The notes under the pieces are model-generated. The model saw only the letters and a list, made by a program, of their open reading frames with translations, did no database searches and was not told where the DNA came from. From IMG/VR virus record IMGVR_UViG_2657245461_000008: 5,580 nucleotides of DNA; one strand, given 5' to 3'. Positions 706 through 920 of this stretch are shown piece after piece. The position numbers and the translations under genes are program-made. This stretch comes from a virus (Duplodnaviria > Heunggongvirae > Uroviricota > Caudoviricetes). Position 1 is the stretch's first letter; each line of letters opens with the position of its first letter.

Positions 706-728
706 TTTGCCCCCAATTTGCCCCATTT
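706..728 (+). repeat. Tandem TTTGCCCC motif pair (TTTGCCCCC aa TTTGCCCCATTT)
   Basis: Read directly: TTTGCCCCC at 706-714 and TTTGCCCCATTT at 717-728, immediately 3' of the integrase stop (697). The 12-mer recurs exactly at 903-914. Confidence 0.55.
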
Positions 729-900
729 AGTACCAGAGAACTGAAATAATGCAAGAAAATCAACAAATTACAAAGAAAGAACAATACAACCTGAACAAGT
801 AAGGGCAAAAATCACAACTATCTGACTCATAAGTATTTTATTTATTTTTCAATATGTTAAACATTATCAGCGACAACAATAAGCTACGATAACCCACTCT

Positions 901-920
901 TTTTTGCCCCATTTTTGCCA
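901..920 (+). repeat. Second TTTGCC(CC) motif pair (TTTGCCCCATTT followed by TTGCCA)
   Basis: Read directly: TTTGCCCCATTT at 903-914, identical to 717-728, followed by a degenerate copy TTTTTGCCA at 912-920. Confidence 0.55.

Follow-up and report, generated by a model that had tools for sequence, protein, structure and literature searches.

The paired TGCCCC boxes in the spacer between a truncated integrase gene and the sitABCD operon are very probably arm-type sites for IntR, the integrase of the Rac family, and they lie within a complete and now inert phage attachment site (attP). This reading comes from sequence comparison across the window (the whole stretch of viral DNA that was analyzed, 5,580 nucleotides) and a range of related phages, prophages, and sit loci. 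The boxes lie on both arms of the attachment site, they follow the integrase family across different host sites, and a reanalysis of a published binding experiment argues against the phage excisionase as the protein that recognizes them.

Repeat boxes and attachment site next to the integrase remnant

An earlier note on this DNA had drawn attention to an exact 12-mer repeated behind an integrase gene. The 12-mer, TTTGCCCCATTT, indeed occurs on the + strand at positions 717 to 728 and 903 to 914 and has no third copy in the window. As the note had also described, each copy has a second box beside it, TTTGCCCC (706 to 713, + strand) upstream of the first 12-mer and the degenerate TTTGCCAT (914 to 921, + strand) downstream of the second, and in both pairs the boxes are 11 bp apart from start to start. 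The proposed location 3' of the integrase gene (int) is correct; the int stop codon is at 695 to 697, and the boxes begin at 706. The spacer between int and sitA runs from 698 to 1128 and has a length of 431 bp and a GC content of 33%.

The improbability of the 12-mer by itself had been overstated. Among 2,000 dinucleotide-preserving shuffles of the 431-bp spacer, 48 contained a perfect direct repeat of 12 bp or more (p ~0.02), and a repeat test of the whole window, allowing up to 2 mismatches, was not significant. These numbers would be compatible with a functionless repeat that arose by chance or slippage in an AT-rich, low-complexity spacer. However, two box pairs at 11-bp spacing were seen in 0 of 2,000 shuffles of the spacer, and this paired geometry, together with the comparative evidence presented below, puts the boxes beyond chance.

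The window begins with the terminal 57 bp of an IS1-family element (1 to 57, ending ...GGCAGCATTACC), the insertion of which truncates intR. Positions 1 to 58 match IS1-family ends in thousands of plasmids with 100% identity (one of them annotated as IS1 family transposase), and the first letters of the window are located within the terminal inverted repeat of the element. With the insertion, intR lost its arm-binding domain along with the rest of its first ~198 codons, and what is left is a 3' remnant of about the last 213 codons (58 to 697, + strand) that encodes the catalytic domain only, without most of the core-binding domain. Pfam finds only PF00589 in the remnant, while full-length IntR has PF12167 (Arm-DNA-bind_2) at residues 5 to 69 (E = 4e−26), the separate N-terminal arm-DNA-binding domain that is characteristic of a lambda-type integrase with arm-type sites. 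The homology to intR starts at position 56 and amounts to 97% identity with the intR of phage Rac-SA53, and positions 600 to 798 are 99.5% identical to the Rac prophage of Escherichia coli K-12.

On the integrase side, the homology to Rac runs to position 798, and positions 799 to 919 are 93% identical to the opposite end of K-12 Rac, that is, to the P arm of attR. The spacer is therefore a complete, closed attP composed of a P' arm (698 to 772), a core (773 to 798), and a P arm (799 to 921), with one repeat cluster on each arm and the core between them. The core is a 26-bp identity block, AAGAAAGAACAATACAACCTGAACAA, and is the region of strand exchange with ttcA. In Rac-SA53 (KU052037), the corresponding sequence is annotated as attP, and the core is common to attL, attR, and Rac-free ttcA. 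The earlier suggestion that the repeats might be relics of a recombination site thus holds insofar as they are probable arm-type sites around the core, but they are not the attachment core itself. A phage-borne 5' stub of ttcA, consisting of ATG and 16 codons followed by TAA, spans positions 749 to 802 (+ strand), and the start codon of K-12 ttcA maps to 749. Upon integration, this stub replaces the first codons of the host ttcA; Rac integration and excision were shown to alter the N terminus of TtcA (Liu et al. 2015, PMC4632033).

The box has an inverted near-copy, TTTGCCCT (802 to 809, − strand), which directly abuts the core and is kept in K-12. We did not retain it as a genuine site because O111 and Ceylon31 have AGAGTAAA instead, and the resemblance is probably due to chance.

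The attachment site is present in its closed phage form, flanked by int at one end and by cargo and tail genes at the other, and has no attL or attR junction with ttcA. A 207-amino-acid open reading frame at 4779 to 5402 (− strand) contains a DUF4376 domain (E = 1.6e−15), which fits with the window representing a contiguous phage gene order of int, attP, cargo, and tail genes. In Ceylon31, the corresponding place behind the P arm is taken by a tail fiber assembly gene. E. coli H22 has the same arrangement of truncated int, attP, and sit (6100 to 6345 of the compared piece) alongside a rearranged uspF flank. The closed attP may plausibly have come from a tandem double lysogen that later underwent a deletion, although H22 has just one copy of the core in 12.5 kb in addition to its rearranged flank. 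In a scan of IMG/VR for intact attP sites, most contigs were cut at the int end.

Conservation of the boxes with the integrase family

The earlier note had proposed to look for the motif at the att sites of related phage genomes, and the boxes indeed flank the Rac core in K-12 and in the free phage PHB10. In K-12 Rac, attL carries two P' boxes, and attR carries four boxes at +107, +118, +137, and +148 relative to the core. PHB10, the Int of which is 69% identical, has its boxes at −65 and −54 and at +106, +117, +136, and +148. More generally, in K-12, O111 RM9322, strain 1428, strain H22, and PHB10, the P' boxes start at −65 and −54, and the four P-arm boxes start at +106/107, +117/118, +136/137, and +147/148, forming two pairs with a spacing of 11/19/11-12 bp. 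The distance to the core is fixed to within 1 bp in all five, which would suit an integrase of the lambda type that bridges arm and core.

The window conforms to this layout. TGCCCC starts 65 bp before the core in the distal P'-arm box (706 to 713), 54 bp before it in the core-proximal P'-arm box (717 to 728), and 106 bp after it in the P-arm box at 903 to 914, and the last P-arm box (914 to 921) forms the outer edge of the conserved attP. The putative IntR site at 706 to 713 is kept in K-12 attL, Rac-SA53, and other strains and has the same position in IntR orthologues of 49 to 70% identity. The P arm of the window has two boxes, at the first two of the usual four positions, and 30 to 31 bp are absent between its repeats (at 910/911). 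The box at 903 to 914 is a fusion of ancestral boxes 1 and 3 through this deletion, which explains why it reads TTTGCCCCATTT. The DNA around the boxes is less well kept: between the K-12 and O111 P arms, identity is 70% in the spacer from core to boxes, 92% in the box block, and 45% in the following 40 bp, and the P-arm spacer of PHB10 is merely 60% identical to that of the window, compared with a shuffled baseline of 51 ± 2.6%.

A scan of IntR orthologues with one genome per species revealed members 68 to 74% identical to IntR in Enterobacter, Erwinia, Hafnia, and Citrobacter, all at ttcA, and a clade 49 to 52% identical to IntR in Enterobacter and Pantoea that is inserted beside rstB (NF007898, E = 4e−173). 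In these orthologues, including the rstB-adjacent clade, TGCCCC-N5-TGCCCC is found at most ~15 bp from the end of the int homology. The pair is present in 20 of 22 IntR-family loci, each time at the same position and without a second occurrence in the locus; in unrelated integrase loci, it occurs in 0 of 52 (172 kb, both strands).

The boxes extend to more distant integrases. The wrbA-type Stx phage phi367 has an Int that is 43 to 44% identical to IntR and shows the 2+4 layout around its wrbA core, which we defined by the split of the attL and attR matches. The P' pair of phi367, CGTGCCCCAGACGTGCCCCAAA, lies within the 3' end of int with the wrbA core ~57 bp downstream, and the far side has four boxes (TTTGCCCCAAATATGCCCCAAA, then TTTGCCCCAATAGCGCCCCAAA) with a spacing of 11/20/11 bp. 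On each side, the phi367 boxes are ~11 to 13 bp further out than those of Rac. Klebsiella phage 2 LV-2017 has a P' pair, TTTGCCCCACCCATGCCCCAA, in the tail of int. The boxes are the only repeat family common to both arms in Rac, PHB10, and phi367. TGCCCC is the same in all of them, and the flank on the 3' side depends on the lineage, being ATT or TTT in Rac, TAT in PHB10, and AAA in the Stx type.

The int reading frame runs through both P' boxes in the rstB-adjacent (...ANAPIVPL...), Stx-type (...RAPDVPQ...), and Klebsiella (...FAPPMPQ...) clades, as seen at 2731 to 2781, 2437 to 2502, and 2425 to 2463 of the compared pieces, respectively. The int gene of Rac stops 9 bp before the P' boxes, and elsewhere the boxes are kept as DNA in different reading frames. 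Because the boxes are noncoding in Rac and coding in other clades, their conservation acts at the level of DNA. Across the family, the identity of the N-terminal domain to that of IntR is 48 to 70%, and that of the core-binding domain is 25 to 39% in the rstB and wrbA clades. The core-binding domain must read a different core in these clades, and the domain identities fit with the boxes being arm sites.

The boxes are specific to the IntR integrase family and are kept across the ttcA, rstB-adjacent, and wrbA types of attB, and they are conserved with the integrase rather than with the cargo or the host site. For a chance origin, one could still point out that the number of boxes shifts by recombination between repeats, as in the window, which lacks two boxes, or in Ceylon31, which has lost the 10-bp spacer between the two P-arm pairs. 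Yet position, number, and 11-bp spacing are maintained across integrases that are 43 to 100% identical, three attB sites, and arms that cannot otherwise be aligned, and the control loci have no such pair. We consider it extremely improbable that the boxes are functionless products of the low-complexity spacer.

Two candidate sites for bending proteins lie between the boxes and the core. The interval between the P' boxes and the core contains the sole exact IHF consensus of the window (WATCAANNNNTTR: AATCAACAAATTA; 758 to 770, + strand), a possible H' site. It is situated in ttcA-homologous codons, and we downgraded it as independent evidence because the B arm of the host ttcA has the same consensus. 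The P arm has an IHF-like site, TTTCAATATGTTA (847 to 859, + strand), with one mismatch to the consensus and an A/T-rich tract before it. This site aligns with an exact IHF consensus in the P arm of PHB10, which has two exact sites, and TTTCAATATGTTA is also found in the P arm of the Stx-type attP; IHF may bind at 847 to 859. In phi367, a 23-bp direct repeat (TATATTTTTCAAAATGATAAACC and TATACTTTTCAATATGTTAGACC, at 2486 to 2508 and 2577 to 2599 of the compared piece) flanks the wrbA core, and its second copy contains TTTCAATATGTTA, as does the Rac P arm at 847 to 859. The 23-bp repeats may be sites for bending proteins that are conserved across the family.

The sit operon as cargo outside the attachment site

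The sit cargo occupies positions 922 to 4695 (+ strand) and comprises the promoter region and sitABCD (1129 to 4578), the operon of an iron/manganese transporter. The sequence block adjoining the P arm in K-12 and O111 is encountered in the window only downstream of sitD, at 4696 to 4775; hence, sitABCD and its promoter region were inserted just outside the P arm. This is in line with the description of sitABCD as a moron of lambdoid prophages (PMC9928086). The block, GAAATCATTCAATACTCGCACTATCGAAAG...CCAACCGCGGCACG..., includes a GC-rich hairpin; Rac-like prophages without sit have it behind the P arm, and the window has it behind sitD. It marks the insertion point of the sit cassette. Part of it is present upstream of sit in Perceval (~1440 to 1500 of the compared piece) and 118UI, and the block may be duplicated around the cassette.

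Could the boxes be operators for a regulator of sit, as the earlier note had offered as a second possibility, or part of the sit promoter? They are located in the spacer upstream of sitA, and a weak sigma-70-like match (TTGCCA-16-TAAAGT, 915 to 942) overlaps the last box. However, the Rac prophage of K-12, which has no sit at its locus, and other Rac-like prophages that likewise lack sit carry the boxes, and the first pair lies beyond the att core, 400 bp from sitA. Conversely, most sit loci (such as those of phage Perceval and of 118UI-type chromosomes) have the same sit promoter region without boxes, the homology of these two kinds of loci to the window extending only from ~932 to 940 onward. 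The comparison of sit-positive loci, which the note had recommended, thus showed that the boxes do not travel with the sit promoter, plasmid loci having a vestige of the last box only.

Candidate operators are found elsewhere in the spacer. A Fur-box-like sequence, GTTAATGATAATTATTTTC (~1034 to 1053), matches the Fur consensus at 16 of 19 positions, and a perfect palindrome, AAACATAGC-N4-GCTATGTTT (1075 to 1096), resembles an MntR operator. Both lie upstream of sitA, are kept in all sit loci compared, and are ~115 to 190 bp downstream of the boxes (1034 to 1096). A promoter and terminator scan of positions 600 to 1200 yielded nothing above the shuffle expectation, with 2 promoter-like matches versus a mean of 2.3, and the sole "terminator" was the MntR-like palindrome flagged as a hairpin. 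We give hardly any credence to a role of the boxes in sit regulation, and the spacer upstream of sit is explained as phage attP DNA and not as sit regulatory DNA.

In plasmid sit loci (E. coli AR_0369 plasmid, ~690 to 720 of the compared piece), the upstream region is 82% identical, and the vestige of the last P-arm box (TTTGCTTTGCCAT) is ~70 bp away from an IS1 end. This suggests that the plasmid copy of sit was captured from a context adjoining a Rac-type attP.

Proposed recognition of the boxes and comparison with known attachment sites

Which phage protein would recognize the boxes? Besides the integrase, the recombination directionality factor XisR, an excisionase with a DUF1233 domain, has to be considered. 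Rac, PHB10, the Stx-type phage, and the Klebsiella phage all encode a DUF1233 excisionase beside int; because every box-bearing lineage also has this excisionase, gene co-occurrence failed to separate Int from Xis, and we used the mapping of published EMSA probes instead. By textbook knowledge, tandem direct repeats are typical of the Xis sites of phage lambda, which are confined to one arm. A further point in favor of XisR is that it shifts a 294-bp attR fragment containing the four P-arm boxes; the negative control of that experiment, the 291-bp AttM probe, was not shifted (Liu et al. 2015, PMC4632033).

We mapped the EMSA primers (Liu et al. 2015, PMC4632033 supplement) onto K-12 and found that the AttM and AttR probes both hold all four P-arm boxes. 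AttM starts directly after the core, and AttR adds only the core and the B arm. As AttM was not shifted despite its four boxes, XisR alone does not bind the boxes under the published conditions. What XisR recognizes is apparently contained in the 124 bp made up of the B arm and the core and not in the P arm, which would be unusual for a lambda-type excisionase, as these bind the P arm. Moreover, the boxes occur on both arms, including the pair right after int on P', and if they were the Xis sites, no other repeat would be left for the PF12167 domain. The boxes thus have neither of the two properties of excisionase sites, binding by Xis alone and confinement to one arm, and it is improbable that they serve XisR and not Int.

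Recognition by the integrase is consistent with the whole arrangement. Heterobivalent integrases such as lambda Int need arm-type sites on both arms, and a short motif distinct from the core is present on P' (at 706 and 717) and on P (at 903 and 914). By analogy with such systems, we infer Int to be the binding partner of the boxes, and the part played by each box is likewise inferred. The PDB contains no solved homologue of a PF12167-type arm-binding domain, and in the openly searchable literature we found neither arm-type sites described for IntR or the 933W/wrbA-type integrases nor direct binding or mutational evidence for IntR at the boxes. Arm-type sites are a textbook principle for lambda-type integrases and are apparently undescribed for the IntR family.

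We hypothesize that in an intact Rac-type phage, the N-terminal domain (PF12167) of Int would bind the TGCCCC boxes, two on P' and four on P, and the C-terminal domains of the same protomers would bind the core in codons 9 to 17 of ttcA. Bending proteins such as IHF would fold the arms back, with candidate bend sites at 758 to 770, for which the evidence is weak, and at 847 to 859, which has one mismatch, and Int would then bridge arm and core. The resulting intasome would integrate the phage into ttcA or, together with XisR, excise it. The attP of the window is most likely a fossil and inert, because its int has lost the arm-binding half, the window contains no xisR, and only two of the usual four boxes are left on the P arm. 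Recognition of this site by an IntR supplied in trans is a matter of speculation.

Our analysis extends the Rac att site from its 26-bp core alone to a complete attP on which the arms, candidate Int sites, and candidate bending sites are mapped. Engineering or predicting Rac-type integration depends on such a map, as does any judgment of which Rac-like and wrbA-type Stx prophages are still able to excise. The results also raise the possibility, which we regard as tentative and rather unlikely, that PF12167 integrases at ttcA, rstB, and wrbA have one TGCCCC 2+4 arm-site code in common and that their N-terminal domains are interchangeable, leading to cross talk between prophages. If so, coresident prophages could interact, for example, in EHEC with a Rac-like prophage and a wrbA Stx phage, and the Int of one phage could occupy or bridge the arms of another prophage. 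Orphan attP relics like that of the window could then titrate Int or feed IntR-driven rearrangements around the sit island. The box code common to these integrases makes cross talk a testable hypothesis for coresident prophages of pathogenic E. coli and Shigella.

What has been described of the Rac att site comprises the 26-bp core in ttcA, the excisionase XisR, and the interaction of XisR with an attR fragment (Liu et al. 2015, PMC4632033; KU052037). The window agrees with it in that positions 56 to 919 consist of Rac intR and Rac attP, with the core at 773 to 798 being the annotated attP. It differs in that it contains a closed P'-core-P site with sit attached, from which two P-arm boxes have been deleted.

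A second relevant system is the IntS-TorI module of KplE1 (CPS-53) and HK620, for which the arm-type (P') sites of IntS and the sites of the RDF have been mapped (Panis et al. 2010, PMC2951348). Like Rac, KplE1 is a cryptic prophage of K-12 with attL and attR, and it illustrates that arm sites of defective prophages can stay functional and overlap other signals. In contrast to the boxes described here, the IntS arm sites share TAAA and not TGCCCC, attB is the tRNA gene argW, and a different protein, TorI, serves as the RDF.

A close parallel in layout is the attP of phage lambda. Like lambda attP, the Rac site, ~215 to 245 bp in length, repeats on both arms a short motif that is unrelated to the core. 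A tandem cluster spaced at about one helical repeat lies on the short P' arm beside the 3' end of int, and more copies lie 100 to 150 bp out on the longer P arm. In both systems, the integrase is heterobivalent and has an N-terminal domain of its own for the arms, and the Rac site has putative IHF-like sites between the arm boxes and the core. The arm-type sites of lambda, P1, P2, and P'1 to P'3, were reportedly described by Ross and Landy in 1982 as being bound by the N-terminal domain of lambda Int; the lambda P1 and P' sites and the Rac P' boxes have one orientation in common. The Rac motif, however, is centered on TGCCCC, whereas that of lambda is C/AAGTCACTAT, and the arm-binding domain of IntR is PF12167 (Arm-DNA-bind_2), whereas that of lambda Int is PF09003. 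Rac has 2+4 boxes, all in one orientation, and lambda has 3+2 sites with P2 inverted. Finally, unlike in lambda, the Rac core lies inside a protein-coding gene, ttcA, the 5' end of which is replaced by the phage, and arm binding in Rac is a prediction from the DNA sequence.
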